Positions 9,376 to 38,829 of a stretch of DNA of 64,000 nucleotides are shown piece after piece. The stretch covers positions 372,001-436,000 of the forward strand of contig JABVCE010000011.1 of the NCBI GenBank assembly GCA_014905635.1, in the 5' to 3' direction. This DNA comes from Scenedesmus sp. PABB004. Its lineage: Eukaryota. The notes beneath the pieces are model-generated. The model was not told the DNA's origin. It saw only the letters and a list, made by a program, of their open reading frames with translations, and ran no database searches. A program made the position numbers and the translations under genes. Within the stretch, counting starts at the first letter, position 1, and every line of letters begins with the position of its first letter.

Positions 9376-9634
9376 TCCGTGCGTGAATCAAAGGAATGCT
9401 CAGTCGACAGAGCCTAGGGCGCCGCCAGCACAGCACACGCAGCGCGCATTCAAGTGCGGTCAAGCACGGGCGCGGCGCGCCGCCTGCACGCAGCACTGCC
9501 GCGCCGGCGCGGGGCCACGCAGATCTAGGGGGACTGCACAAAAGCAACTGCTGGTCAGTGTGTCTGTGACAAAGCAAACAGGCCGTGCGTGGGCCAAACA
9601 AAACATCGTGCCGGGCCCGCGAACACGCTCGGGC

Positions 9635-11989
9635 TCAGGCGCCAGGGCCCCACACCAGCCAGCCGTAGTACCGCCCGGCGGCGCCGGCCGCGGCGGCGCG
9701 CACGTACGGCTGCGCGCCGGCGGCCCTGGCGCTGCGGCGGCGCTGCGCCGCTGCGCGCATTGGCTCGAGGTTTTTGTAGCCGATTGGGCTCGCGCAGCCG
9801 CCGCCCATGAGGCAGTTGGCCGCAGCGCCCGCCACGTGCGGCGCGGCCTGCGGCGGCGGCGGGCGGGGCGGCGCGCGTGAGCGCCGGCGGCCCACGGGGG
9901 CGGCGGCGGCGGCTGCCCCGCGCCGCGCCGGGGCACGGGGCTCCGGCTCCGCCCGGGCAGGACCGCCGCGCCGCGCCGCGCCGCGCCGCGCCGCACCATG
10001 CTGGTGCCGCTCTTGACCGCGTAGCCGCTCGGGTCGACCACGAACGAGACGGTCGAGTTGATGTCCGAACCGGGCGCGGCCACGACGCGGCGGCGCTCCT
10101 CCGGCGCCGCGTCGGCGGGCAGCCAGTTGCTGAAGCCGGCGGGGCCGTCCCCCGCGCCGTCGAGCGCGGTGACCGCCGCGACGCCGGGGCAGGCGGCCGG
10201 CAAGTAGTCGGCCAGCGCCTCGCCTGCGTTGCCGGCCGCGACGACGCTCAGCACGCCCGCCGCGCTCGCCTCGGCAAAGACGGGGCAGATGCTCGCGAGC
10301 GTGAGGGCGTAGCCGGGCGAGCTCGCGGGCAGGTGCGCGGCGAGGCTGAGGTTGATCACGCGCAGCCCGTTGGCGCGGCCGTTGACCGCGGCCCACTTGA
10401 CCGCCGAGAGCATGCCGCTGAGGAGGCCAAAGCCGGAGTCGTCCATGATGCGCAGACTGAAGAGCGGCACGCCGGGCGACACGCCGACGAGCCCCGCGCC
10501 GTTGTTGCGCGCGCCGACGATGCCCGCGAGGTGCGTACCGTGCCCTGTGGGGTTCAGACCCGCGGCGGCGGACGCGGCGGTCAGCGCGGGGCGGGGCGCG
10601 GCCGCGGGCGCCGGCGGCGCGCGCGGGCCGCGCGGTGGGGCGCTCACCGAAGCCGTCGCGCCCGGCGTCGGTGTCGTTTTTCACAAAGCTGACGCCGCCT
10701 GGGGGGGGGGGGGCAGGGCCGGCCGGCCCGGCGGGCGGCGTCAGGCGGCGTGCGTGCGAGCGGCGAGGGCGGGGCGGCGCCGCGGCGGGGCAGCAGCGGC
10801 GGCGGCGCCCACCCGCGTAGTTGAGGTCGGGGTGGCTCGCGTCGATGCCTGGCGGCGGCGGCGGCGCGGCAAGGGCGTCGGCGGCGGCGCAGCAAGCAAG
10901 GGCGGTGGCGGCGGCGCACCAGGGGAGCTCCCCCCCCCCCACAGACACACACACACACCGCACCGGAGTCTATGATGCCGACCACCACCTGCCTGCCGGG
11001 CGGCACGCCGGCGGAGCTCACCACGCCGGCCGCGGTGGCCGCCTCGATGCGCGCCACGCCGGTCGGGACCTGCTCGCCGGCCGCGAGCGGCACGCGCGGC
11101 AGCCCGCCGGCGCTCGGCTCCGCGCCCGCGGCGACCGCGCGCGGCGCGGCCGCGTCGCCGGCGGGTCTGGCGTCCTGCCAGCCGGCCGGCAGGAGCGGCA
11201 GGTCGGGGATGACTGCGGCCACGAGCGGCGAGCGGCGCAGGCGCTGCACCGCGTCGGGGGTCGCCGACACGACCGCGCCCTGCACGCCGCCGCCGGCGGC
11301 GCCCCCGGGGGACGCCGCCGCCGCCACGCCGCGCGGGGCCGTCGGCTCGCCCGCGGGCTGCCCCAGGCTGCCCAGCAGCTCCACGTCGGCCTGGCCGCCG
11401 GCGGCGGCCGCGCCGCGGGCCCCGCCGCCCAGGAGCGCCTCCGCGGCGGCGGCGTCGGCGCCCGGCGCGAACATGACGATGTAGCGGCCGCCCGCCGCGG
11501 CGGCGAGCTCTGCGGGGCACAGGCGGCGACGGACAGCAGGCGTCACCGAAGCGCGGCGTGAGCGCCCGGCGACGGCGCCGCGGCGGCGCGGCAAGCACGC
11601 GTGCCGGCCCCCCTGCGCGCGGCGGAGATCCCGAGGCCGGGCGCTCACCGTCTGGCACGGCCTGCAGGCCTCGCGGCTGCACGACATCGGCGCCTGCGGT
11701 GCGCACGCAGCGGCAGCCTCAGCGCGGCTGCGCACTCCGCTCCGCTCATGTGTACCAGCACCACCGCCAGCTCGCCGGGCGTGCCCCCCGGGGCACGGCG
11801 GGCGGCGGTGCCGCGCGGGCGGGCGATGAGGCCGGGCTCACGGCGGCGTGGGGCACGCGCGGCCTCACCTGCCAGTTCCGGCGCAACGAGGGGCCTCCCA
11901 CTAGTCCCGGACACGGCGAGCAGCAGCAGCAGGCCGGCCCGAGTGGCGGCCAGCGCCGCACTCCGCGCGCCCCGGCATGCTGCGGTCAT
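9635..11989 (-). CDS. Secreted subtilisin-like serine protease (peptidase S8) with I9-like prodomain
   Basis: Signal peptide (GLLLLLAVSGTSG) and prodomain RYIVMF. Catalytic motifs VVVGIIDSG/IDASHPDL, HGTHLAG, oxyanion AAGN and SGTSM|AAPHVAG. Multi-exon. Confidence 0.92.
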
Positions 11990-13272: not shown

Positions 13273-15981
13273 ATGCCGCACCAGACCTGCCTGGCCGCGC
13301 TCCTGACGCTGCTGCTGGCCGTGCACACCGCCATCGCCCGCCAGGAGCCCGACGCTCGCTCCGCAGCGCCGTCAGGTGCGCTTGTGGCGGGACGCGCGGC
13401 AGGTTACGCGAGCAGGCCACGATCGGAGGGCGCCGCGCGGCGCGCCAGTGATCGTCACGAGCTCGCTGGCTGACGGTTCCGCGCGGCCTCCGCCCGCCAG
13501 GGCTCGCCGACCTGCCGCTGGGCGCGCCCATCGAGGGCCGCTATGTCGTGATGTTCAAGCGCGAGGCGGGGGCCGCCCCCGCCGCCACCACTCGGTGAGG
13601 ACGCGCGCAGCGCGGGGGCCGCGCCGGCGCCGCGGCGGCGGCGCCGCGCGGGCGGGCGTCACCGGCCGGGCGCTGCTCACCTCTGCCGCGCCGCGTCGTC
13701 CCCCGACCCCGCGCCGCAGGCTGGCGCAGCACGTCGCCGCCGCCGCAGCAGCAGCGCCCACGCTGCGCGGCGTCGCCGCCGCGGCGTCCAGCAGCGCGGC
13801 GGGCGCGCCCGGCTTTGTCGTGGTCGGCAGCCTGCAGCGCGACCAGGAGGACGGCGCCGCCCGCAGCGCCGCCGCAGCCGGCGCAGCGGCGCCGCGTGGC
13901 GCGCAGGGCATCGTGGTGAGCGCCAGCAAGCAGGTCGCGGCGGTCATGCAGACCTCCAGCGACGTCGCGGCGGTGTTTGCGGACCGCGTCATCGGCGTGC
14001 AGGGTGCGCGGCGGGCGCGGCGGGCCCGGCGGCGGCTGACCCAGCGCTGCAGCCCGCGCCGCGCAGGGGCAGGCCCGCGGCAGCTGCGCGCGGCCCTCGC
14101 CCTGACGCCTGCCGCGCCGCCGCCGCCGCCGCCGCCGCCGCTGCCGCGCAGCCCGCGCCGCGCCGGCCGCCTGCGTCGAGCCGCAGACGCTCGAGCAGGG
14201 CGTGTCGCTCGCGGCCGCGTCGGCCCCGCGCTTCAAGTGGCCGGGCTGCATCGTGCCCGGCGCGCGGCTGGTCTACAAGGGCGCGCGCTGCGACGCCAGC
14301 TCAGACCTGGTGCAGTACAGCGAGGTCGCCGCGGTCAACGCCGCCGGCAGCGTGCTGCGCTCCGCCTCGGCGGGCGCGCCCTGCGTGCTGCGCAGCAGCA
14401 CGCGCGCGACGTGGACGCGCCAGCGCTTTGGCGGCTGCGGCGCGGCGCCGCTGTTCGTGGCGTCGCTGCCCACGCGCGTGTGCCCCACGCGCTCCGGCGG
14501 CGGCTTTGTGAGCGGCAGCCCGCCCCCGAGCCCCAGCCCCAGCCCCAGCCCGAGCCCCTCGCCCAGCCCGGCGCCGGAGCTGCCGACGCCCGGCGTGTCG
14601 CCCTCGCCCCCGCCCCCGGCGGCGACGGCGCAGCTGCCGCGCGTGCCGCTCGCGGCCGACGAGTTTGTGCCCACCGGCGTCGCGCGCATCGAGGCGGCCA
14701 GCGCCGCGACCGGCGCGGTCAGCCTCGCGGGCCTCCCGACCGAGCAGCAGCTCGTGGTGGGCATCATCGACTCCGGTGCGCCCCGCGCGCGCTCCAGCAG
14801 CGCGCCGGCGTGCGCGCGCGCGCGCGCCGAGGGCCGCCGCAGGGCGCTCACCCGCTCTGCCGCCGCCGCGACAGGCGTCGACTCGACGCACCCCGACCTC
14901 AACTTCGCGCCTGAGGCCAGCCGCAGCTTTGTCACCGGCGACACCGAGCCGGGGGTTGATGCATACGGTGAGCGCCCGACGCGCTCCCCGCGCCGCCTGC
15001 GCCGCGCCGGGCGCCCCGCACCCCGCGCGCCGCGCCGCCGCACGAGCTGACCGCCGCCGCCGCCGCCGCCGCCGCGGGCGCCAGGGCACGGCACGCACGT
15101 CGCGGGCATCGTCGGCGCGTCGAACAACGGCGCGGGCGTCGTCGGCGTCTCGCCCGGCGTGCGCCTCGCGTCGCTCAAGGTCCTCGACGCCGCGGGGCGC
15201 GGCACGCTCTCGAGCATGCTCGCCGCCGTGACGTGGGCGACGAGCGCGGAGGGCGCGGCCGCCGGCATTCGCGTGATCAATCTCAGCCTCGCTGCGTACG
15301 TGGCGCCCGACAGCGCCGACGCCGCCGCCGTCACGGGCGCTGTGTGCGCGACCTTCCAGGCGGCCAGCGACGCGGGTGCGGCGCGGCGCGCGAACGCGGC
15401 GGCGCGTCGCACGGCGCCGCGGCGCGTCGTGCCGGCACCGCGCGCGCGGCGCCTGACGCCCGACGCGCCCGCCCCGCCGCCGCTTCCCCCTTGCCCCCCG
15501 CCGCGCAGGCATCGTCGTCGTCGTCGCCGCCGGCAACTACGGCGCCGACCTGACCTCCGGATACCTGCCGGCGGGCTGCCCCTCGGTGATCGCGGTGACC
15601 GCGGTGGACGAGGCCGGGGCGTCGCCGGCGATGTTCTCCAACTGGCTGCCCGACTCGGCCGGCCCCGACGCCAAGGCGCGCGTGCTCGCGGCGCCCGGGA
15701 CGAGCATCCGCAGCACCGTGTCGTTCGCGCGCGACCCGAGCGGCTACAAGACGCTCTCGGGGACGAGCCAGGCGAGCCCGCACGTCGCGGCCGTCGCGGC
15801 CAACTGCCTCATGGCCGGCGCGTGCGCGCGCGGCGCGCCGGGCGCGTCCGCCGCGGGCGTGCTGCAGGCCGCCGCCGCGGCGCGCCTCGCGCGCGCGGGG
15901 CCCGCGTACGGCTTTGCCGGCGACGCGGCCAGCACCGCCAACGCCAAATTCTTCGGCCTCCTAGCGCACGCCGCGTTCTGA
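13273..15981 (+). CDS. Secreted subtilisin-like serine protease (peptidase S8), paralog of 9635-11989, with an extra Cys-containing domain and (SP)n linker
   Basis: Signal peptide MPHQTCLAALLTLLLAVHTAIA and prodomain RYVVMF. Catalytic motifs VVGIIDSG/VDSTHPDL, HGTHVAG, AAGN and SGTSQASPHVA. Stop at 15981. Confidence 0.92.
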
Positions 15982-17793
15982 ACGACGCGCACGCGCGCGC
16001 CGCGAGAGCTGCCCGCCCTGACCGCGGCGCGCCGTGCCGTGCACGGCACGCCCCAGGGCTGCGCCCGGCCCCGCGGGGCGATTGCCCCCAGGGGCTGCGC
16101 GCGCTTGGTTGGTTGACCTGGTTTGCCCTCCCTCCCTTGCCTGACGCGGGCGCGCCCGCCCTGGCGTGCCGCGCGGGCCGGCCGCACGGCCAGGCCCCGC
16201 GCAGCGCGGCTGGGCGCGCGCGCCAGCCGCGGCGCGCTCGTCGGGTCATGCCTTGGGCCTCGCTTGCACCCAGCACTGCCGCACCGCACCGCCAGGCGCG
16301 GCTGGCCTGCCTGCCTCCCGCGCCCCGCTGGTGTGCTTGCCGAGCGCGTCCACCCAGCAGCAGTGGCAACCCAGCTGCAGGCGTGCGCGAGCGTTTTTGA
16401 GTGCCCCGTTGGACTTGCCTGTACAACACCAACCAGCCTTGTGAGGACGCCGCCGACGGACGTGAGCTCCCCCCGCGCCCCGCCTGGGCCCCTGCATGCC
16501 TTGCGCGCGCATTCCTGGGGCGCGGCGCGCGCGCCGCGCCCCCACCACTGCAAGGTGCCCGTCCCTGTTTGTGAGGGACTCTGGGTCTGTCAGACTGTCC
16601 CTTCTCTTTGTGCCTTGTGCTGAGGGCTCTCTCTCCCTGAGGGGGGTTGGCGCGTGCGTGCGTTGATGATGATGATGATGCTGGCGAGGGGATGGGTGCT
16701 CACAGGCGCAGACACACGCGGCCGCCGCGCGGCGGCGCGGCCCAGCGGCGAGCGCGGGGCGTGGCCGCCCCCGGGCCGCCCCCGCGAGCCGCCGCGCGCC
16801 GCGCCGCGCCGGCGGAGCGCAAGCGCGCCGGCTACCGGGGCCGGGGGTGGCGCCCCGCAAGCGGGGCGGGCCGCGCAGGCCCGCCCGCCGCCGGCGCCGC
16901 CCCCTCGTGTGTGCGACGACAGCACGGTGATGGGCATTGCTTTGCGCGCCATACCTTCCTTTCTTTTCCACGCCCGTCAGCCACAGGTTGCTGCCCCCGC
17001 ATTCCTGCCCCCACGTCCCGTCCCGGCCTGGCGCTAGAGGGGTGATTCGGTGATCGGCAGGATCGGCAGGGGCTCGGGATGGGGCGGTAGGCGCTTTGGC
17101 TTTGCTTTGGCGCCTGAGCACGCGCACGCTTCACCTCGCACACTTGCCACCTCTTGGAGGTGCTGGCCTCAGCACGGGCGGCGGCGGCGCTCACGGCGCT
17201 CGTTGCACCCGCGCACATGCTCGCCCATTCCTTTTGGCCCATCCCTGCGTCGACCGAGGGTGGTGGGCAGCGACGCCCATGCTGCGACGTAATGGCGATT
17301 CAAGATGCTAGATGCACCACGCGCGATTCATCCCTCATTCCTCAACCGCGACCGCACCGGGGCAGCGCTGAGTGCGCTCGCTGCACGATCATCCCTTTTT
17401 TTCCGCGTTTGGTCAACCCAACCCTTCTCTGTCTTCTGCTGCCTGGCTGCGGGGGCGACGGCTGCTCGGCCAGAGGGCGCTGTGTGTCGCACCCGGGTGC
17501 ACTGCCGACGCGTCTCGCACACAATGTGCGAGTGTGTCACAGCGGCACGCGGCGCCGCAGATTGCGGCGACGATTCAACTGCACCTCTGCCTGCAGCGCT
17601 GTGCCTGCGCACGCGCGGCGCGGCGGCACGAAATGTGCCGCACGCGCGTCGCGGCGGCACGAAATGTGCCGACCACCTGAATGGATGAGACGGGAGCTGC
17701 AGCTGGAGACCGCATGGCCGGCCAGCCGCCGGCTTTAGAGCCTTGTAAGTCATCATCAGTCCACAGCCTTTACAAGCAGCAGCGCACGCGCAG

Positions 17794-29345: not shown

Positions 29346-29974
29346 TCACCGGTGGGGGTGACCGCGGGCGTGGTGGGCGTGGCCGTGCACGCCGGGCGCG
29401 GGCGGCGCGGGGCTGGCAGCCTGCGCGCTGGCGTCCGCCGGGGCGGCTGCCGTCGCGGGGGCGGCTGCCGTCGCGGGGGCGGCTGGCACCGCCAGCGCCG
29501 CCAGCGTGCTGGGCCAGGACTCAACCGGCTCGTACGGGCCTGCGGGGCGGGCGCGTCGCCCTGAGAGGCAGGCGTGCGCCGGGGCCAGCCGCCCCGCGGC
29601 GCGCCCCGGCACGCGCCGCGCGCGCGCCCGCGCCGCGCACCAAAGCTCCGGCCGTTGCGCTCAAAGTCGCTGCCGCTGGTGCCGCCGGTGTTGCCGCCGC
29701 CCCTGCGGTCCGGCACCGGCTCGTACTCCCCGAAGCGCGGGCGCTCGCGGTCCTCCCAGCCCGCGCCGCTCGCGGCGTCGGTGCTCTCGTTGTCCCACGC
29801 CGCGGCGCCGGCTGCGGCGGGCGGCGGCGGCAGCCGAGGCGGTGGCGCCGGCGGCAGTGGGTGAGGGGCGGCGGCCGCCGCAGCCGCGGGGACGAGGCGG
29901 GCACCTCGCCGCGGCTCACCGAGCAGCAGCAGCAGGCCCGCCAGTGCCAGATTCGGTGGGGCGTGGCGCCCCAT
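29346..29974 (-). CDS. Small secreted protein A of the GTxGSDFxxxxRxFG family (3 exons)
   Basis: Exons 29974-29920, 29811-29641 and 29539-29346 are joined by GT-AG introns. Product: MGRHAPPNLALAGLLLLL|AGAAAWDNES...RPRFGEYEPVPDRRGGGNTGGTSGSDFERNGRSF|GPYEPVESW...HGHAHHARGHPHR*. Confidence 0.75.
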
Positions 29975-30506
29975 GGGAGCTGCGCGAACGGGGCGGAGCC
30001 TGCGGTGTGCCGGCGGCCGCGCCCTGAGCGCCGGCGCGAGGGCAGCCAGCCCGCGGCGCCGCGCGGCCCCGGCCCCCGCCCGCTGGCCCACGGCGCCGCT
30101 TGCGCAGCCACCTGGGTGCTCTCGATAACTGCGCGACCGGATTGCGGCTGCCGCGGGCACGGCCTGAGGTGCTCGGGCGAGCCGGCTCGCGCGCGCGCGG
30201 GCTCGCGCGGCAGGGCGTGCTCGGGCGGCTGTTTGGCTGACCGGCTGAGTGCCTGGAGACTCAGAATGCGGCCGTGGAAAGCTCTGTCAACGGCAGGAGC
30301 AGGCGAGCCGAGCCGCGACAGCCGCGTAGGAGCATTGCACTTTGGCGGGAACGCTGTCGCTCTGCCCGACCCGCGCCCGACAGGCCACGCGGCGGCGTGG
30401 AGCTCGCTTGAGCTGCGACGGCTTCGAACAAGCAGCTCGCGCGATGCCGGAGCGTTGCGGCGGCGCGCGTTGCCAGCGGCGGCACTCGCCCGCGACGGGT
30501 GCCAAC

Positions 30507-33099
30507 TCACAGCCCCGCCTCGCTGACGAGCGCGAGCGCCATGCGCATCTCGCCGTCCGCCTCCTGCACGTACATCCGGCTCGGCGGGCGCGGCGCGGCC
30601 GCCGCCACGCCACCGGGGGCGGCGCCGGGCGCCGGCGCCGACGCGGCGCCGCCGCCGCGCCCGGTCGCGGCCGCCACAGCGGCGGCCACCGGCGCCGCCA
30701 GGCGCGGCCCGCGGCCGCTGACGCGGCCGCCACCGCCGGGCGCGCACGTGAGCACCCACTCCTTTTGCGCCGGCTCTCCCAGCGCGCGCTGCAGGCCGCG
30801 CACCTCGCGCAGCCACGCGGGCCCGCCGCGCGCGCCGTCCTGCGAGCTGCCAGGCGAGCCCCGCGCCGCGTGGTCCTGCAAGCCCTCCGCGTACGCGCCG
30901 TCCTGCAAGCCCTCTGCATACTCGCCGTCCTCGTGGTGGCACAGCCCCTCCAGCCCCAGCTCGCCGCCGGCGCTCTCGTCCGAGCCGCTGCGCCCCGGCG
31001 GCGGCGCGGCGCACGCCGCCGCCCAGCGCGCGAGCGCCAGCCGCTCGTCGTCGCCGAGCCGCGCGGCCGGCAGCAGGCTGCCGGGGCCCATCACCGCCGC
31101 GTCGCCGCCGCCCGCGCCCTGCAGCAGGTTGGCGAGCAGCCGCGCCGCGAGCGCGCGCTGCCCCGGCAGGCGCTGCAGCAGCGCCTCGCCCAGGACGACC
31201 ACCTGCTCCACGTAGGCAAACTCTGCGAGCAGCAGCTCGAGCTCGACGTCCGACAGCCCGCCCTCCGCGCCCTGCCAGTCGCCCGCGAGCGGGGCGCCGC
31301 GCGGCGCGTCCGCGCCGGCCGCGGCCGCCGCGGCGAGGTGCTCCTCGATGCCGCCGCCCTTGCGCAGCACGCCGGCGGCCATGCCCTTGAACCTGCGGCG
31401 CGCGCAGCAGCGGCGGCGGCGGTGTGCGCGCGGCGGCGGCAGTGGGCACGCGGTGCGGCGGCGCACGCCGCGGCGGCGCACGCCGCCGCACCGCTCCACG
31501 ACCGCCGCGGCCGCCGGCAGCGCCGCGCCGCGGCTGGCCGCGAGCAGCGCGAGCGCCTCGGCCACCGCGGCCGCGAGGAGCTGGCTGAAGAGGGGGCGTG
31601 GCTGGAGGGTCTCCAGGTAGTGCAGCACCTGCGGCGCCAGGGCGAGGCAGAGGGGGCGGGGCGGGGCGTGTGACGCGTGGCGCGCGGCGCGTGGGCGGGG
31701 CGCGGGCGCGCGGCGGCGTGGCCGGGCGCGCGCACCTGCTCGCCCTCCTTGGCCGGGTTGAGCAGCTGCCGCTGCGCCGACGCGGGCAGCGGCGCCGCGA
31801 GCGCCCAGAGCTGCTGCCAGCTGTTGCCGGGCGCCGCCATGCGCGCCGACAGGCTGCCGCCGGACGCGGCGTCGCCGCTGCCCTCGCCGCCGGCGTCGCC
31901 GCCGCCCTCGCCGCCGGCGTCGCCGCCGCCCTCGCCGCCGGCGTCGCTGCCAGCGTCGCTGCCGGCGTTGCCCCCGTCTGAGCACGCCGCCGCTGCCGGC
32001 GGCGCGACGTCGCGCGGCGAGTACCAGCGCAGGAAGTCGTCCAGCACGCAGCCGGGGTTGGCCGCCTTGAACGCAGCCATGTCACCCAGCAGCGGCGCGG
32101 ACAGCAGGCGCTGCCGCAGCAGCAGCAGCTGCTCGTCGCCGCCGGCGCCGGCGCCGCCGCCGGCCGGCGCCGCCGCCGCGAGCTGCAGCAGCGCGGCCTG
32201 GCGCTCAATGGCCTGGTCCTCTGTGAACACCGGCGCGTCCTGCACGACCGGCACGCGCAGCGGGCGGCCCGGGAAGCGCAGCAGCGCGGCGCCCGGCACC
32301 ACGCCCGCCACGCCCAGCGGCTCGGCGTCGTCGCCGGCGTCGGCGAGCAGCGGCGCGGTGCCCGCGCGCGCGGCGGCGCGCCCGGCGCCGCCGTCGGGCG
32401 CCGCGTCGGCGCCCGCGGGCGCGGCAAACTCGGAGCGCGCGTCCTCAAAGGCCGCCAGCTGCTGTGCTCGGTCGTCGCCATCGTCGCCGCCGTCGCCGTC
32501 GTCGTCGCCGGACGCCGAAAAGAAGCTGCTGCTTCCGCCGGGCGTGAGCGGGCGGCGCGCGCCAGCTCCGCCGCCGGGTGCTGCGGCGTCGTCGTCACCG
32601 CTGGCGCTGCCGTCGAGGGACGCCGCCTCGCTGGGGCTGGCTGGCGAGTCGTCCGGCAGCGGCAGCGCGGCGGCGGCGGCCAGGCCCCCGCCGAGGCCGC
32701 TGCCGGCGCGGCGCGCGCGGCGGGCGCCGGGCGCGAGCCGGCTGCCGGCGCTCGCGGCGCTGGCGCCGCTGCCGGCGCGCCGCAGGCCCAGCGCCGGCGT
32801 GCCGCCGCTTGGTGGGCGGGCCTGCTGGTGCGCCACGCCGCGCGCCGTGCGGCGGTCGCGGCGCCAGATGCACAGGTTGAGCATCTGCAGCTTCTGTTGC
32901 AGCAGGCACGCATCGAGGTCAGGCACGGGCGGGCCGCCCGCGCACGCGGCCGCCGCCTCGCCAGCGCCGGCGTCGCCGAGCGAGCCCTGCCGGCTGTGGC
33001 CCGGCCAGCTGCTGCAGCTGCTGCTGCTGCTGCCGAGGCGGCTGAGCCCGGCACCGGCCGGCTGCTGCTGCGGCTGCTGCGGCTGCTGTGGTTGCTGCG

Positions 33100-33142
<43 letters not shown>

Positions 33143-36100
33143 GCTGCACGCCGGCATGTGCGGCAACAGCGTGCGCTGCTCCCAGAAGCCCAGCCGCACC
33201 TGTGGCGGCGGCGCGGCGACAGCGGCGGAGCGCAGGGTCAGCATGGGAGGGCTTGCGGCGCCGCGGCGCGGCGCCCGCCGCCCGCCTGCCCGCCCGCCCG
33301 CCGCCCGCCCGCCCGCCCGCCTGCCCGCCCGGCCGCGCACGCTCGCCGCCGCACCTGGACCATGAAGCGCTGCCACAGGGCCGCCACGGCGCGCGCATTG
33401 CCGAAGACCAGCGCGTGGCACGCGAGACGGCACAGCAGGCTGCCTGGCGGCGCCGCGCGCGGCAGGCACAGCGCGGCGGCCGCCCGGTGCTCCCGTCCCC
33501 GTCGCCCTCGCCCGCCACGCTCGCCCGGCTGCCGCCTGCGCCGCCGCGGCCGCCTGCGCCGCCGTCGGCGCCGCCGCTGCCGGCCTGCTGCTGGCGCGGC
33601 GGGCTCAGCAGGTCGCGCAGCACCGCGTCCAGCACCCCGTCGGGCGGCAGCAGCGGCGCCAGCACCTCGCCGCGCTGCTCCCACCACTCGGCGCCTGCGC
33701 GGCGGCGGCGGCGGCGGCGCGCGGCCGTGGGCGAGGCGAGCGAGCGCGCGCCCGGCCGCGCGCCCGCCCGCCGCCGCACCTGCCAGCTCCCAGAGGCTGC
33801 CCGCCGCCGTCGCCGCGGTGCGAGCGGTCATGAGGGCACTGAGCATGACGGTGAAAGACCCCGGGTCGAGCCGCGGCCCCGCCACGCCGCGGCCCGCCCA
33901 CGTGCCGGGGCATAGCCCCAGGGCTGCGGGCACACGCCCGACAGCCGCCCGCCCTCCGCGAGCGCCGCGGCCGCGAGCTCCGCGCTCCACAGCCAGTCGG
34001 CGCCTGCGCGGCGCGCGGTGGGGGTGAGGCAAGCGCGGCGCGGCGCGGCGCGGCGCATGCGGCGGCCGCGGCCCGCGCGCACACCCGCGGCGGTGACCGA
34101 GACGTGGCGGCGGTGCCGCTCGCTGCTGCGCATGCCCAGGCGCCCGTGGCGCAGCGGCGGGCTTGAGAAACCATGGTCAACCGCGTGCAGCAGCCAGTGG
34201 TCGGCGCTCGCCGCGTCGGCGAGCGCGCGCGACAGCGCCGCCGGCGTGTCCAGCCCGCCCGGCGGCGGCAGCGGCGGCGGCTCGGCGCGGGGCGCGCCGT
34301 CCCCGGCCGGCGCGGCGGGCGCCGCCGCGGACCCTCTGCTGACCACGAGCTTGCCCGGCCGGGCCTTGCCCGCTGGCGGCGTGCCGGGCCGCTGGCTGCT
34401 GGCGGCCGCAGCCGCCGTCGCGGCCGCCGCCGTGGCCTCGTCGACCAGGCGCCGGTCCTCCCAGACCACGTCCAGCTCCAGCGCCACCACGGGGTCGCGC
34501 TGCTGCGCCCAGGGCTGCCAGGGCGCGTCCGCGTCCCATTCCCGCCCCCGAGCGCGTCGTCGTCGTCGCCCGGCAGCGCCGCCGGCCCGCCCGTGGCGCT
34601 GCTGCCGCGGCTGCCCGCGCCGCCGCTCGCGCTGGGCCCGCGCGGCTGCGGCGGCGGCGGCGCCGGCTGCGGCCGCGCGCGCGCCTCTGGCTGCGGGTGC
34701 AGCCAGTGCTGCCGGCTGGCGTCTGGGAGGCGGAACGTGAAGCAGGCGGACGCCCACACGGCGTAGCCGCCGCCGCTGCCGCAGCCCAGGCCCAGCTGCT
34801 GCTGCTCGCCGGGCGGGCTCGGGGCGCCGCCCTCGCCCGCCGCCGCGCCGTCGCCGCCGGGCGCCGCCACCGGCGCGTGCCCGAGCGCCACGAGGCACGC
34901 CGCCGCCGCGGCGGGCGCGTGCGGGGCGAGCTGGTCTGCAAACACCGTCAGCTGCTGCTCCAGGCCCGTGAGGTGGCGAGGCAGGCGGCTGATGTGGATC
35001 GAATCGGCCGTGAACACGACGCTGCGCCCGCCCACCTGCGCGGCAGCGGACGGCGACGGGCGTGCGCGCGCGGCCAGGGCGGGGGCGGGCGGGTGGCGGG
35101 GGGCGAGCAGGCCGGCCGAGGCGCGGGCGCCGCGCGTGACGTGGCGGGTGCGGCCCCTGGGGCGCCGCACCTGCGCCACGCCGGCGTACGCGTCGCGCAG
35201 CGCGTCGTGCACCGGCAGCAGCAGCGGCCACGCGACGCCGCTGCCGGCGAGCGCGAGGCGGCCGACCGAGAGCAGGCTGCTCGCCTCGGCGGCGTCGAGC
35301 AGGCGCCGGCTGTAGCTCGCGGGCTGCAGCAGGACGAACAGGTCCAACGCGAACCAGCGCTGCAGCTTGTGCACGCCCGACACCGGCGCCCACCAGGGCA
35401 GCTTGAGGCTCGGCAGCGCCTGGAACGGCGCGCCCTCGGCGCCGCCGCCGGCGCACGCGGCCGCGTCGTCGAAGCAGTGCGGCCACCAGCCGCGGCTCGC
35501 GGCGCCGCGGCTCTGGTCGAGGCGCACCGCCGCGGTCGCCGCCGCCAGCGCCTGGCTGTCGAGCACCGCGAGCGCCTCTGGCGGCGGCAGCTCCACGAGG
35601 CGCGAGCTCGCCTCGCCGCCCTCCTCGCCGCCGGCGTCGCTGCCGCCGCCCTCGTCGCCGGCCGCGAGCGTCGCCGCGGCCGGCGCGCCGCCGTCGCTCG
35701 CGGCGCCGCCGCTGGCGGCCCCCGCGCCCCGCCGCGCGCCGCGCGCCCTGGCGCCGGCGCGCGGCTCGCCGCCGCCGCGGCCGGCGAGGCCGAGGCCGGA
35801 CAGCGCGTCCACCGCCGCGCCGACCGCCGCCGCGGTGAGCGACTTGCCGCCGGACGAGCTCGAGCGCCGCCGGCCGAGCAGCACGGCCTCGCCGCCGCCG
35901 CCGGCCTCGCCGCCCGCGCCGGCGTCCCTGCCGCCGGGGTCTGGGCTGCCGCGCTCGAGCGCGGGCGCCACGTCACTCACGTCGATCTCGTGGCTCGTCA
36001 GCCGCCGCGGCCGCCGCACGTGGGGCGCCGCGCCGTCCGGCTCAGTCGCGCTGCCCTCCTGCTGCAGCTGCGCGTGCAGCTGGGTATACTCGGCGATCAG

Positions 36101-36953
36101 CTCCTGCACGTGCTGCTCCAGCTGCGCGCCGCCGCCGCCGCCGGCGTCGCCCTCGCCGGCGTCGCCCGCGCCCGCGGCGCCGGCCGCCCCCGCGGCGGGC
36201 GCTGCCTGCCGGGCGGCCGCCTGCGCCGTCGCGGCCAGCTGTTGCTGCTGCTGCTGCTGCTGTTGCCGCCGCCGCCGCTGCCGCTGCTGCGCCTGCTGCG
36301 CGTGCTGCGCGTGCTGCGCGTGCTGCGCGTGCTGCGCGTGCTGCGTGCGCTGCATCTGCTGCTGTGCTTGTTGTGTCTGCTGCTGCGGCTGCTGCTGCTG
36401 CTCTTGCCGCGGCTGCTGCTGCGCTTGCTGCGCCTGCTGCTGCTGCTGCGCCTGCTGCGCCTGCTGCGCCTGCAGCTGACGCTGCCGCGCCGCGGCCAGC
36501 TCCGCCTCGCGCGTGTAGGGGACATGGAGCGTCAGCGTGTACGGCTGCTCGCGCCAGGGCAGCCTGCGGCGTACGCGCGGCGTGGCGGTTGGCGTGGCGG
36601 CCGCGCGCCAGCAGCCGCCCAGCACGCGCCGCCGCCGCCGCCGCCGCCGCGGGCGGACCGGTGCCGCAGGGAGTTTGCCACGCGCACGAGGCCGATCGGC
36701 TGCTTGTCGGCGCCCACCGCCGGCGGCATGTGGCTGATGTTCTCCAGGCCGGTGAGCAGCCAGCCGCGGAAGCACTGCTCCAGCTGCGCGACCAGCCTGC
36801 GGCGGCGCGCGCGGCGGGCGCGGCGGTTGGGCGCCGCTGCCCGCGACCGCCGCTGCCACCGCCGCAGCAAGCGGCGCAGCCGCGGGCGCAGCGCGTCGGT
36901 CACCGCTCGACGTTGGTGGCGAGCGTGTAGTCATGGAAGCCCTCGTCCGACAT
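30507..36953 (-). CDS. RAB3GAP1: Rab3 GTPase-activating protein catalytic subunit, multi-exon, with poly-Q tracts and apparent frameshifts near 33495 and 34545
   Basis: N-terminus MSDEGFHDYTLATNVER. Further motifs HKLQRWF, AVAALWQRF..VRLGFWE, PDLDACLLQQKLQMLNLCI, LLGDMAAFKAANPGCVLDDFLRWYSPRD and LSARM..GNSWQQLW..QRQLLNPAKEGEQVLHYLE. Confidence 0.92.
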
Positions 36954-37435
36954 CCGGCCCACCGCCGCTGCTCGCCGACCGCGTGCAGCGTGTGCGCAGC
37001 TCGCGGGCCTGGGGCGCGGCAGCCGACGACTCCACACTCGAGACAGTGCCGCGGGGCGCGTGGGCGAGCGGCTGCGGCGGGGCCCTGGGCGATCGGCTGC
37101 GGCGTGCCGGCCGTCGCGCCCGTGCTGCTGCTCGGCCGCGCCCGCGCAGCACCGCGCGCACGCAGGGAGGGGCCCGTGTGGCCGGTCTGGGCTTCCTGAT
37201 CGTCACACACAAAGATCAATGCGTCGCCGCGCGAAAACGCAGAACCTCGGCGGCGCAAGCCGGTGAGGCCGCGGCCCAAAACAAAGTGAACTGTGCAAGA
37301 TGTTTGACCGGGGGAGGGGTTGTGTTGCAGCTGTCGACAACAGACCACCTAGAGGTGCCAGTGCTGCCGCGGTGGCCCGTCACGAATCGGGGCCCGCCCG
37401 CAGGTGCGCGCCACCAATCAGTTGCGCGCCGCCAA

Positions 37436-37964
37436 TCAGTTGTGCGCCGTCGCCGCATGCGTGGCGCCGCCCGAGAGCTCGTGGACCCACGCCCACGCCG
37501 TGCCGTCCGCGTCGTGCGCCTCGCCGTCCAAGTCGTACAGGGCGGGCTGGCCGTTGCCGTCTAGGCCGAGCGCCTGGTCAACGGGCACGCCGTCGTAGGG
37601 GTCGTGCGGGTCGTGCCCCACGGCGCGCCAGTCCTGCACCCAGTCCCAGGGCTGCTCCTCCTCCACCGCCAGCTCGTCGTCGGTCCACGCGGCGGCGCCA
37701 CCGGTGGCGCTGCCCGCATCGTCGTCGTCGTCTCCAAAGCTGCGGCCGCCGCGGAGGAAGTCGCTGCCCGTCGTGCCGCGCGCGTGCGCAGCCGCCGCAC
37801 AGCCTGGTGAGATGTGGCGCGGTGTGAGCGGGTGAACGGGCCAGATGCTGCTCGGGCAGCCAGCCAGCTGCCGGCGTGGCTGCTGCGCGCAGCGCTGCGC
37901 CAGCGCCGCCCCGCCGCACCCGCGAGCAGCAGCGCCGCGTGAGGCGGGGGGCAGCCCTCCCCAT
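37436..37964 (-). CDS. Small secreted acidic protein B of the GTxGSDFxxxxRxFG family (2 exons; one extra base needed in the G6 run at 37946-37951)
   Basis: Exons 37964-37920 and 37803-37436. With the run corrected: MGRAAPPPHAALLLA|GCAAAAHARGTTGSDFLRGGRSFGDDDDD...PWDWVQDW...ATAHN*. Confidence 0.65.
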
Positions 37965-38201
37965 CCGAGCAGGCCCGCACCGCGACACCAATAGCCTAGA
38001 GGCTCCGCCGCTGGCGCGGTTCGTGCCCTAGTGATGCTCCCAACTCGCTCGACTGGCGTCCAGGTCAGGGCGCGGCGTGCTGGTCGGGCTGGCCGCGCGG
38101 CTGGCGCGGAGGCGAGGCGGTCACGTCGCGGCACGCTTGAGCTGGCGCGCGCGTGCTGAGATTGGTGAGCAGTGAGTGTGCAGGTTGCTAGCTACATAGC
38201 A

Positions 38202-38538
38202 TCAGCTCCGTCGCTTCGGCGGCGGCGGCGTCACCGCCGCCGCTTCGGCGCTGCCCCACGGCCCCCAGCTTCGGCTCGCCACGCGCGTCTTCACCGACGT
38301 CTTCAGGCTCTCCGCGCCAGGCTCGTAGGCGCCGAATTTGCGGCTCCGCTGGTCGAAGTCGCTGCCAGGCGTGCCCCCCGCAGACGCGAGCTCGCCTGCG
38401 GCGGCGCGCGGCACGAGCGGCCCTTTCAGGCGGGGCGCCGGCCGGTGAGTCCTCCAGCAGCCGCAGCAGCTCACCCAGCAGCAGCGCGGTCAGGGCCAGC
38501 GCGAGCGCCACGCGGCCGAGGCGCGGCGCCCTGGCCAT
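38202..38538 (-). CDS. Small secreted protein C of the GTxGSDFxxxxRxFG family (2 exons)
   Basis: Exons 38538-38475 and 38395-38202 give MARAPRLGRVALALALTALLL|GELASAGGTPGSDFDQRSRKFGAYEPGAESLKTSVKTRVASRSWGPWGSAEAAAVTPPPPKRRS*. Confidence 0.75.
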
Positions 38539-38829
38539 CTTGGCAGCTGCGGCGGCGGTTGTGCGTGCAGCGACGCTGGTGCCTGGCCGCTTCGGATTCG
38601 AGTCCTGGAGCGAAAGCGTGCGTCGTTAATAGCTGGAGCGGGCTGTGACGGGCGCAAACAGTGGCGGCGCGCCGCGCGGCGCGGCGTCGGTTTCTGGAAC
38701 GTGGGCGTGGCGGCACCGCCAGCGCGCGCGAGCTGCCCCCAAAAGTCGCAGTTGTCGCCGCGGACGCAGCGCACGGGCGGCGGCGACCGGCGGCGCGCCG
38801 CGGCTCTGCCGCCCGCCCTCCAACCTTCG

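Follow-up and report, generated by a model that had tools for sequence, protein, structure and literature searches.

Three linked paralogues of Scenedesmus sp. PABB004 share a short N-proximal motif and probably encode small secreted proteins

We analyzed a 64,000-nucleotide stretch of the genome of Scenedesmus sp. PABB004 (assembly GCA_014905635.1, contig JABVCE010000011.1, positions 372,001 to 436,000 of the forward strand), hereafter the window, and found three linked genes (genes 1, 2 and 3) whose products share the motif GTxGSDFxxxxRxFG. The genes span 9 kb on the same strand, on both sides of a gene for the catalytic subunit of Rab3GAP, and their products have about 85 to 160 residues. 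They form a paralogous family that is real but uncharacterised, with no recognised relatives. The reading that we tentatively favour, with a probability of roughly 40%, is that these paralogues form a lineage-restricted family of small, secreted and disordered proteins in which an N-proximal motif of about 20 residues acts as a recognition element, the proteins being most likely secreted ligands.

Results

A motif conserved through synonymous changes

Using the regular expression GT.GSDF.{4}R.FG on the six-frame translation of the window, we obtained three matches, all of them on the minus strand (Table 1), and the tetrapeptide GSDF appeared nowhere in that translation beyond these three copies. 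The back-translated degenerate DNA pattern returned the same three sites, with no match in 100 dinucleotide-preserving shuffles. We also built a profile from the three motif segments (A2) and ran it against the open reading frames (ORFs) of at least 15 codons in the window. The three copies scored 63.5, 59.0 and 35.7 bits and the next match scored 7.6 bits; no further, weaker copy was found in the 64 kb with this profile. The presence of the motif, which had been pointed out in an initial annotation made from the letters of the sequence alone, is confirmed. That annotation had also placed the genes around RAB3GAP1, and a Rab3GAP domain does sit between them.

Alignment of the three copies gave nine invariant positions (G, T, G, S, D, F, R, F and G). 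At five of these, synonymous codons vary among the genes: Thr is encoded by ACC or ACG, Phe by TTT or TTC (at two positions), Arg by CGG or CGC, and the codon of the last Gly also differs. Outside the motif block the three genes could not be aligned, in agreement with the earlier description of the proteins as dissimilar save for a single block. Codon variation at invariant residues, next to flanks that cannot be aligned, suggests purifying selection on the peptide and speaks against a recent copy or repeat at the DNA level. The sequences therefore point to an old duplication in which the peptide would have been kept under purifying selection.

Similarity extends past the last Gly in part of the family, since FGxYEP is common to gene 1, gene 3 and a partial copy of the motif found in gene 1, that is, to three out of four copies. 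A second Arg lies two to three residues upstream of the invariant one, and a G-R pair occurs inside the motif of genes 1 and 2 (RNGR and RGGR, respectively) and not in that of gene 3. The motif is N-proximal, and the tail that follows it has 37 to 97 residues.

Structure of genes 1 and 3 and coding signature

Each of the three genes had been described as a signal-peptide exon followed by a phase-1 intron. This holds for genes 1 and 3, which have an ATG, a GT donor after a split Gly codon, an AG acceptor and phase 1, and fails for gene 2 as assembled, whose putative first exon ends in phase 0. Exon 1 of gene 1 encodes a short basic n-region and then a hydrophobic core rich in Leu and Ala. Its exon 2 encodes, in this order, a variable acidic and Trp-containing stretch, the partial copy RPRFGEYEP (29717-29743, with the FGEYEP portion at 29717-29734), an RR pair eight residues ahead of the full motif, a Gly-rich linker, and the motif up to its last F and the first base of the Gly codon. 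Hence, both the dibasic RR and the partial extra copy that had been reported upstream of the full motif are there, and a half-motif (RxFGxYEPV-like) is duplicated within the gene, a feature also of precursors that carry several copies of a peptide. In intron 2, which splits the last Gly codon of the motif, GC content is flat over the three codon positions. Splicing of this intron is supported by the junction itself, because joining the exons recreates FG-PYEP, the FG-x-YEP arrangement seen in gene 3. The tail of gene 1 contains an 18-nt tandem repeat (3.2 copies) that encodes an Ala-Pro/Thr-Ala repeat, and it has a His-rich end.

In gene 3, the product of exon 2 begins with ..LASA, followed by GGT and the motif. 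If the intron of this gene is left unspliced, the same ATG opens another frame that remains open to position 38188 (38188-38625, minus strand) and lacks the motif, an illustration of how easily alternative ORFs arise at such a GC content.

We then looked at base composition by codon position. In the proposed exon frames of the three genes, the GC content at third positions (GC3) ranges from 0.83 to 1.0, and that at second positions (GC2) is the lowest of the three in five out of six exon segments. The exception is exon 2 of gene 3, with a value of 0.65 at first positions (GC1) and a GC2 of 0.70. For comparison, exons of the window confirmed by Pfam (those of Rab3GAP, a WD40 protein and a subtilase) have a GC3 of 0.96 and a GC2 of 0.58. 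As far as composition can tell, the exons of the small genes show the codon-position pattern of confirmed exons and, together with the synonymous codon differences and the shared intron position, this argues for selection on the protein.

Table 1. Coordinates of the three genes, of the motif copies and of neighbouring genes (positions in the window)
Feature	Position	Strand	Remarks
Gene 1, exon 1	29920..29974	-	ATG at 29974; 55 nt, phase 1, stops on first base of a Gly codon; GC3 0.83
Gene 1, intron 1	29812..29919	-	GTGAGC..CGCAG, 108 nt; position common to gene 3
Gene 1, exon 2	29641..29811	-	GC3 0.96
Gene 1, intron 2	29540..29640	-	GTGCGC..CCGCAG, 101 nt, phase 1; splits the last Gly codon of the motif
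Gene 1, exon 3	29346..29539	-	PYEP, Ala/Pro-rich repeat, His-rich tail; TGA at 29346-29348
Gene 2, putative exon 1	37920..37964	-	ATG at 37964; C6 run at 37946-37951
Gene 2, putative intron	37804..37919	-	GTGCGG..CACCAG, 116 nt
Gene 2, exon 2	37436..37803	-	Ala-rich end of signal region, motif, D5 run, acidic Trp-rich tail; stop at 37436-37438
Gene 3, exon 1	38475..38538	-	ATG at 38538, three Arg, Leu/Ala core, split Gly codon; 64 nt, phase 1; GC3 1.0
Gene 3, intron	38396..38474	-	GTGAGC..CGCAG, 79 nt
Gene 3, exon 2	38202..38395	-	..LASA, motif with AYEP, basic tail with PPPP; TGA at 38202-38204; GC3 0.89
Motif, gene 1	29639-29683	-	Regular expression
Motif, gene 2	37733-37777	-	Regular expression
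Motif, gene 3	38331-38375	-	Regular expression
Rab3GAP catalytic subunit	ORF 31094-33604	-	PF13890, E 3e-35
Notchless-type WD40 protein	27-29.3 kb	-	Pfam
Isochorismatase	38.5-40.9 kb	-	Pfam
S8 subtilase	9463-10680	-	Peptidase_S8
S8 subtilase	15051-16397 / 15457-15978	+	Peptidase_S8

The start of gene 2 is out of register as assembled

Coding periodicity is strong in exon 2 of gene 2 (GC3 0.93, GC2 0.55). The only good donor (GTGCGG, 37919) comes 45 nt after the ATG, a distance that leaves the junction in phase 0, while the exon carrying the motif needs phase 1. Relative to a hydrophobic stretch, this donor is placed as in genes 1 and 3, to whose signal cores the stretch corresponds. In the frame of the stretch (..PPPHAALLLA, followed by the split Gly and the donor) there is no ATG back to the previous stop. 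As assembled, the ATG is therefore out of frame with the hydrophobic stretch, by one base, and also with the motif exon. We enumerated 41 GT/GC-AG models joining an upstream ATG to the frame of the motif, and none of them gave a hydrophobic N-terminus; only four had GT donors, with introns of just 34-52 nt.

The homopolymer of six C (Table 1) is located between the ATG and the hydrophobic stretch. A change of one base in the length of this run would restore the register and give an N-terminus much like that of gene 1. The out-of-register state is possibly an error of the assembly or consensus, the mark of a young pseudogene, or an unusual start, and the strong periodicity of exon 2 fits an assembly error and a young pseudogene alike.

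Two other observations concern this part of the window. An 18-nt tandem repeat (37401-37449, 2.7 copies with 90% matches) runs across the stop codon of gene 2, and its duplicated units make up both this stop and the beginning of the 3' untranslated region (UTR). Besides, genes 3 and 2 follow each other on the same strand at a distance of only 237 nt (37965-38201), measured from the stop of the former to the ATG of the latter. As a 3' UTR and a promoter would hardly both fit into this space, co-transcription of the two genes is conceivable.

Predicted properties of the proteins

The signal peptides were assigned by eye. In genes 1 and 3 we recognized a basic n-region that leads into a Leu/Ala core (13-16 residues), with small residues ahead of the motif. 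The motif lies one or two residues past the likely cleavage site in genes 2 and 3, as the earlier statement that the block comes right behind the predicted cleavage in two genes implied, and within about 45 residues of it in gene 1. From these features, the proteins of the family are probably secreted. Their tails are very different from each other: that of gene 3 is basic and contains a T-PPPP run, that of gene 2 is highly acidic and rich in Trp, and that of gene 1 is rich in Ala, Pro and His.

We compared four exon products of the three genes with Pfam and found no family at E<=10; the exon products had no matching chain in the PDB at the same threshold. AlphaFold2 gave low-confidence models for the exon 2 products of gene 2 (from a single sequence) and gene 3 (from a three-row alignment), with mean predicted local distance difference test (pLDDT) values of 55.6 and 63.4 and predicted template modelling (pTM) scores of 0.20 and 0.14, respectively. 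Both models are almost devoid of secondary structure, and the sole regular element is a helix of six residues within the motif. These models are weak evidence that the proteins are disordered, and a linear motif would fit them and the empty Pfam and PDB comparisons better than a folded domain.

Searches for relatives

An alignment of the three paralogues (A1) was searched against 5.8 billion clusters and yielded 802 candidates sharing words with it, none of them at E<=10. Profile A2, run against 1,835,955,588 representative sequences, gave two matches at E<=0.001, and we rejected both as relatives. The first (P0008) is a low-complexity sequence of 1233 amino acids with a repeated KPGSDFVHA. 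The second (P0009) is a bacterial-type protein of 528 amino acids, of periplasmic type and with a weak STN domain, that ranks high only through a repeated unit: around residues 235-400, four to five repeats of the form FGPGSDFE..M+.FGEQ mimic the core of the motif. This repeat matched no Pfam family. Its likeness to the motif is striking, yet we judge it to be due to chance or convergence. The reason to discard both matches is that a core of eight residues is expected hundreds of times by chance in such a library; on a rough estimate from average residue frequencies, GSDFxxxxRxFG should occur a few hundred times in 2.4e11 residues.

Scanning metagenomes with the DNA pattern, we found 27 loci, ten of which translate to the full motif, the other 17 matching only the degenerate DNA. 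The ten have a GC content of 0.46-0.56; three represent the same 290-codon ORF, two lie in a 23-codon ORF, and none has a signal-like start or YEP. In the ESM Atlas, the best value was 0.89, with unnamed clusters and for gene 3, and there was no usable match for gene 2. A literature search on the motif, on small secreted proteins of microalgae and on sulfated peptides of green algae returned no description of the motif. The initial annotation had not recognised a described family, and this stands across Pfam, PDB, the protein sets, the ESM Atlas and the literature. The paralogues themselves score only 36-64 bits, when significance in 1.84 billion sequences starts at about 36 bits. Since the motif is near the limit of detection and short genes with introns are often left unannotated, the empty searches are weak evidence for restriction to a lineage.

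The conserved Gly is poorly placed for amidation

According to the initial annotation, the genes would encode precursors of peptides of about 15 residues ending in RxF-amide, with PAM acting on the conserved Gly. Several features agree with this: a putative signal peptide is followed by a conserved core that ends in F-G, the partial copy of gene 1 reads R-F-G, and PAM and amidated peptides exist in Chlamydomonas (PMC6919629). However, a Gly that donates the amide is expected at the C-terminus or before one or more basic residues, and this was the case in none of the copies. The residue after F-G is P in gene 1, D in gene 2, A in gene 3 and E in the partial copy, so that the caveat already attached to the proposal, namely that the Gly lacks the usual basic cleavage site, is confirmed in four out of four. 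All three amidated products identified in Chlamydomonas (PMC6919629) come from -GRRR, from -GR, or from a Gly with trimmed Arg and His, the Arg or His after the Gly being removed by a carboxypeptidase. Likewise, the screening rules for amidation given in PMC6313938 call for G(K/R) or a terminal Gly. Amidation would also call for PAM, convertase and carboxypeptidase genes in the genome; as possible processing enzymes, the window shows only the two S8 subtilase genes. Conservation also crosses the proposed cut, with xYEP kept past the Gly in three of the four copies, which is unexpected for sequence to be discarded and suggests that the functional unit extends across it. We therefore consider RxF-amide peptides very improbable; the mechanism is not supported by the residues around the Gly, and the label of peptide hormone precursor appears premature.

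Discussion

A proposed secreted recognition element and its alternatives

We propose that each protein would enter the secretory pathway by means of a cleavable N-terminal signal peptide, and that selection would act on two elements only. One would be the signal exon together with the phase-1 intron behind it; the other would be a linear motif close to the N-terminus, some 20 residues long, which reads GTxGSDFxxxxRxFG and in two of the genes goes on with xYEP. Cleavage by signal peptidase would place the motif at the start of the mature protein, or close to it, in genes 2 and 3; in gene 1, a spacer of about 45 residues, RR included, would precede it. The motif might bind a single partner common to the family, most probably an extracellular receptor, with tails that are free to drift. 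The active element would extend through the Gly into YEP, with no amidation at F, and the Tyr beside acidic residues would be a candidate site of modification. We favour a role as ligand because a putative signal peptide is combined with a single selected block in drifting, disordered flanks, and because a half-motif has been duplicated in gene 1. A more specific form of this proposal is an undescribed family of protist or algal ligands, in which signal peptidase would directly lay bare some 20 residues at the N-terminus (GTxGSDF..RxFGxYEP), perhaps with a modified Tyr, as an epitope for a dedicated receptor; we find it rather unlikely.

A number of points weigh against secreted ligands. The signal peptides were assigned by eye, and the signal region of gene 2, as assembled, lacks an ATG in its frame; the gene may be a pseudogene or contain an assembly error. 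Intron 1 of gene 1 keeps the frame and contains no stop, and it is possibly retained; GC3 in its read-through frame is about 0.75, versus 0.96 in confirmed exons. No conserved processing site is apparent C-terminal of the motif. The low confidence of the AlphaFold2 models is weak evidence for disorder, given alignments of one and three sequences. No orthologue was found in any collection, so the conservation seen is that among the three paralogues of the source genome. Besides, the motif is N-proximal, unlike the C-terminal domains of plant peptides, and in this position it would suit a sorting or processing tag equally well.

Indeed, one could argue that the motif is a signal for sorting, cleavage or modification that is read within the secretory pathway, and that the variable tails are the functional cargo. 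Its position close behind the likely cleavage site and the wholly different composition of the tails agree with this, and the invariant Arg with the second Arg upstream could form a subtilase site, two S8 subtilase genes being present in the window. Yet no domain is recognisable in the tails, and their disordered look makes them doubtful as cargo, and the subtilase genes are 13-28 kb away, with nothing tying them to the family. Patterns of the convertase or RxxR type are in any case uninformative, since 756 of 771 secreted Chlamydomonas proteins carry such a site (PMC6313938). We regard a tag of this kind as rather doubtful.

Alternatively, the genes could encode small proteins of the cell wall or matrix, similar to hydroxyproline-rich glycoproteins, with the motif serving for assembly or cross-linking and not for signalling. 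The Ala-Pro/Thr-Ala repeat in the tail of gene 1 and the T-PPPP run of gene 3 resemble O-glycosylation modules of algal wall proteins, and the Tyr of YEP could be cross-linked. Gene 2, however, has no Pro-rich module, the proteins are very short, and the conserved part is not the Pro-rich part, so such a function seems unlikely. It is quite improbable that there is no family at all, only unexpressed, decaying or mis-modelled ORFs in a genome with 79% GC and its chance open frames. The window does hold 150 stop-to-stop ORFs of at least 250 amino acids, gene 2 is frame-broken as assembled, and the protein collections searched contained no orthologues. But chance ORFs would not keep nine identical residues through synonymous changes, nor would they share an intron position or have their GC3 periodicity exactly in the frame of the motif.

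Comparison with known systems

In order to contextualize the family, we compared it with secreted precursors of other organisms. The amidated prepropeptides of Chlamydomonas (Cre03.g204500, which gives GATI-amide, Cre12.g487700 and Cre17.g722300) resemble the trio, for which secretion is predicted, in being secretory, lineage-specific families with local clustering and in having low-complexity regions rich in Pro and Ala (PMC6919629). They differ in size, Cre03.g204500 reaching 94 kDa, and in the amide Gly, which is C-terminal or precedes Arg or His there and precedes P, D, A or E here; we found no sequence similarity to the trio.

The precursors of modified plant peptides (RGF/CLEL, PSY, CLE, CEP, IDA, CIF and PSK) are closer in architecture. 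They share with the trio a signal peptide (putative in the trio), a length of about 80-180 residues, one short stretch of 13-20 conserved residues between variable flanks, and a Tyr near acidic residues that could be sulfated, and their cleavage need not be dibasic (PMC8708909, PMC13091385). The conserved domain of RGF is at the C-terminal end of the precursor (PMC8708909). In the trio, the block is N-proximal and has no Pro in its core, in contrast to the C-terminal plant motifs, and no Pfam family matched at E<=10. Plant peptide motifs are Pro-rich and often start with DY.

Oomycete RxLR, Plasmodium PEXEL and plant NPIR proteins combine a signal peptide, a short motif within some tens of residues and a divergent C-terminal part. 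The trio, with its putative signal peptides, has this same architecture, and its motif differs in sequence from all of them. Those families are also large, with tails that are folded effectors or cargo, whereas here there are three copies with disordered tails and no hint of parasitism. In vasopressin, oxytocin and NPY, the peptide comes directly after the signal peptide and ends in G-K-R, being amidated. The resemblance would be that signal peptidase makes the active N-terminus, and the difference is that the trio lacks a G-K-R site.

Peptide signalling outside animals and land plants has barely been mapped, and short genes with introns are routinely missed by annotation. If the motif is a ligand, secreted peptide signals would have been invented once more, independently, by a unicellular lineage, and the motif would offer a probe for the receptor that can be synthesised; if it is an epitope read by a receptor, it would reveal lineage-specific communication between cells unrelated to the peptide families of plants and animals. 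At present, it is one of many orphan families of small secreted proteins, and its value lies in a clean, testable motif and in the caution that the model of gene 2 calls for.

Genomic setting

The window has a GC content of 78.7% and contains no N; in the region of the three genes, GC ranges from 74 to 83% per kb. Single Pfam domains extend across several open frames whose boundaries are of the GT..AG type, which indicates eukaryotic DNA. Apart from the neighbours in Table 1, the window contains genes for RNase PH, ClpS, FUN14, a protein kinase, a GFO/IDH/MocA oxidoreductase and a P-type ATPase. The two subtilase genes are in divergent orientation, with Peptidase_S8 matches at E-values of 3.6e-20, 9.6e-15 and 2.6e-14, and the ORFs of 80 or more amino acids between 8 and 17.8 kb yielded no convertase P-domain. 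There were no Rfam matches, and the upstream regions of the three genes have no k-mer of at least 11 bases in common to all. TGTAA is the poly(A) signal of core chlorophytes. It occurs four times in the 64 kb, counting both strands, and behind none of the three genes, and AATAAA occurs once; this rarity suggests that the poly(A) signal is neither the usual chlorophyte nor the animal one.

Among the matches to the Rab3GAP segment, the best one with a name is a protein of Closterium, with 32% identity; the other matches found with the Rab3GAP and Notchless-type ORFs were unnamed sequences. The Closterium match and the ClpS gene agree with a green-lineage or plastid-bearing source. Finally, upstream of the Rab3GAP domain, within a long minus-strand ORF (33605-37348), there is a long CAG/GCT-type repeat (36238-36485) that encodes a Gln/Ala-rich tract; its AT skew is -0.38, and strong AT skew occurs nowhere else in the region.

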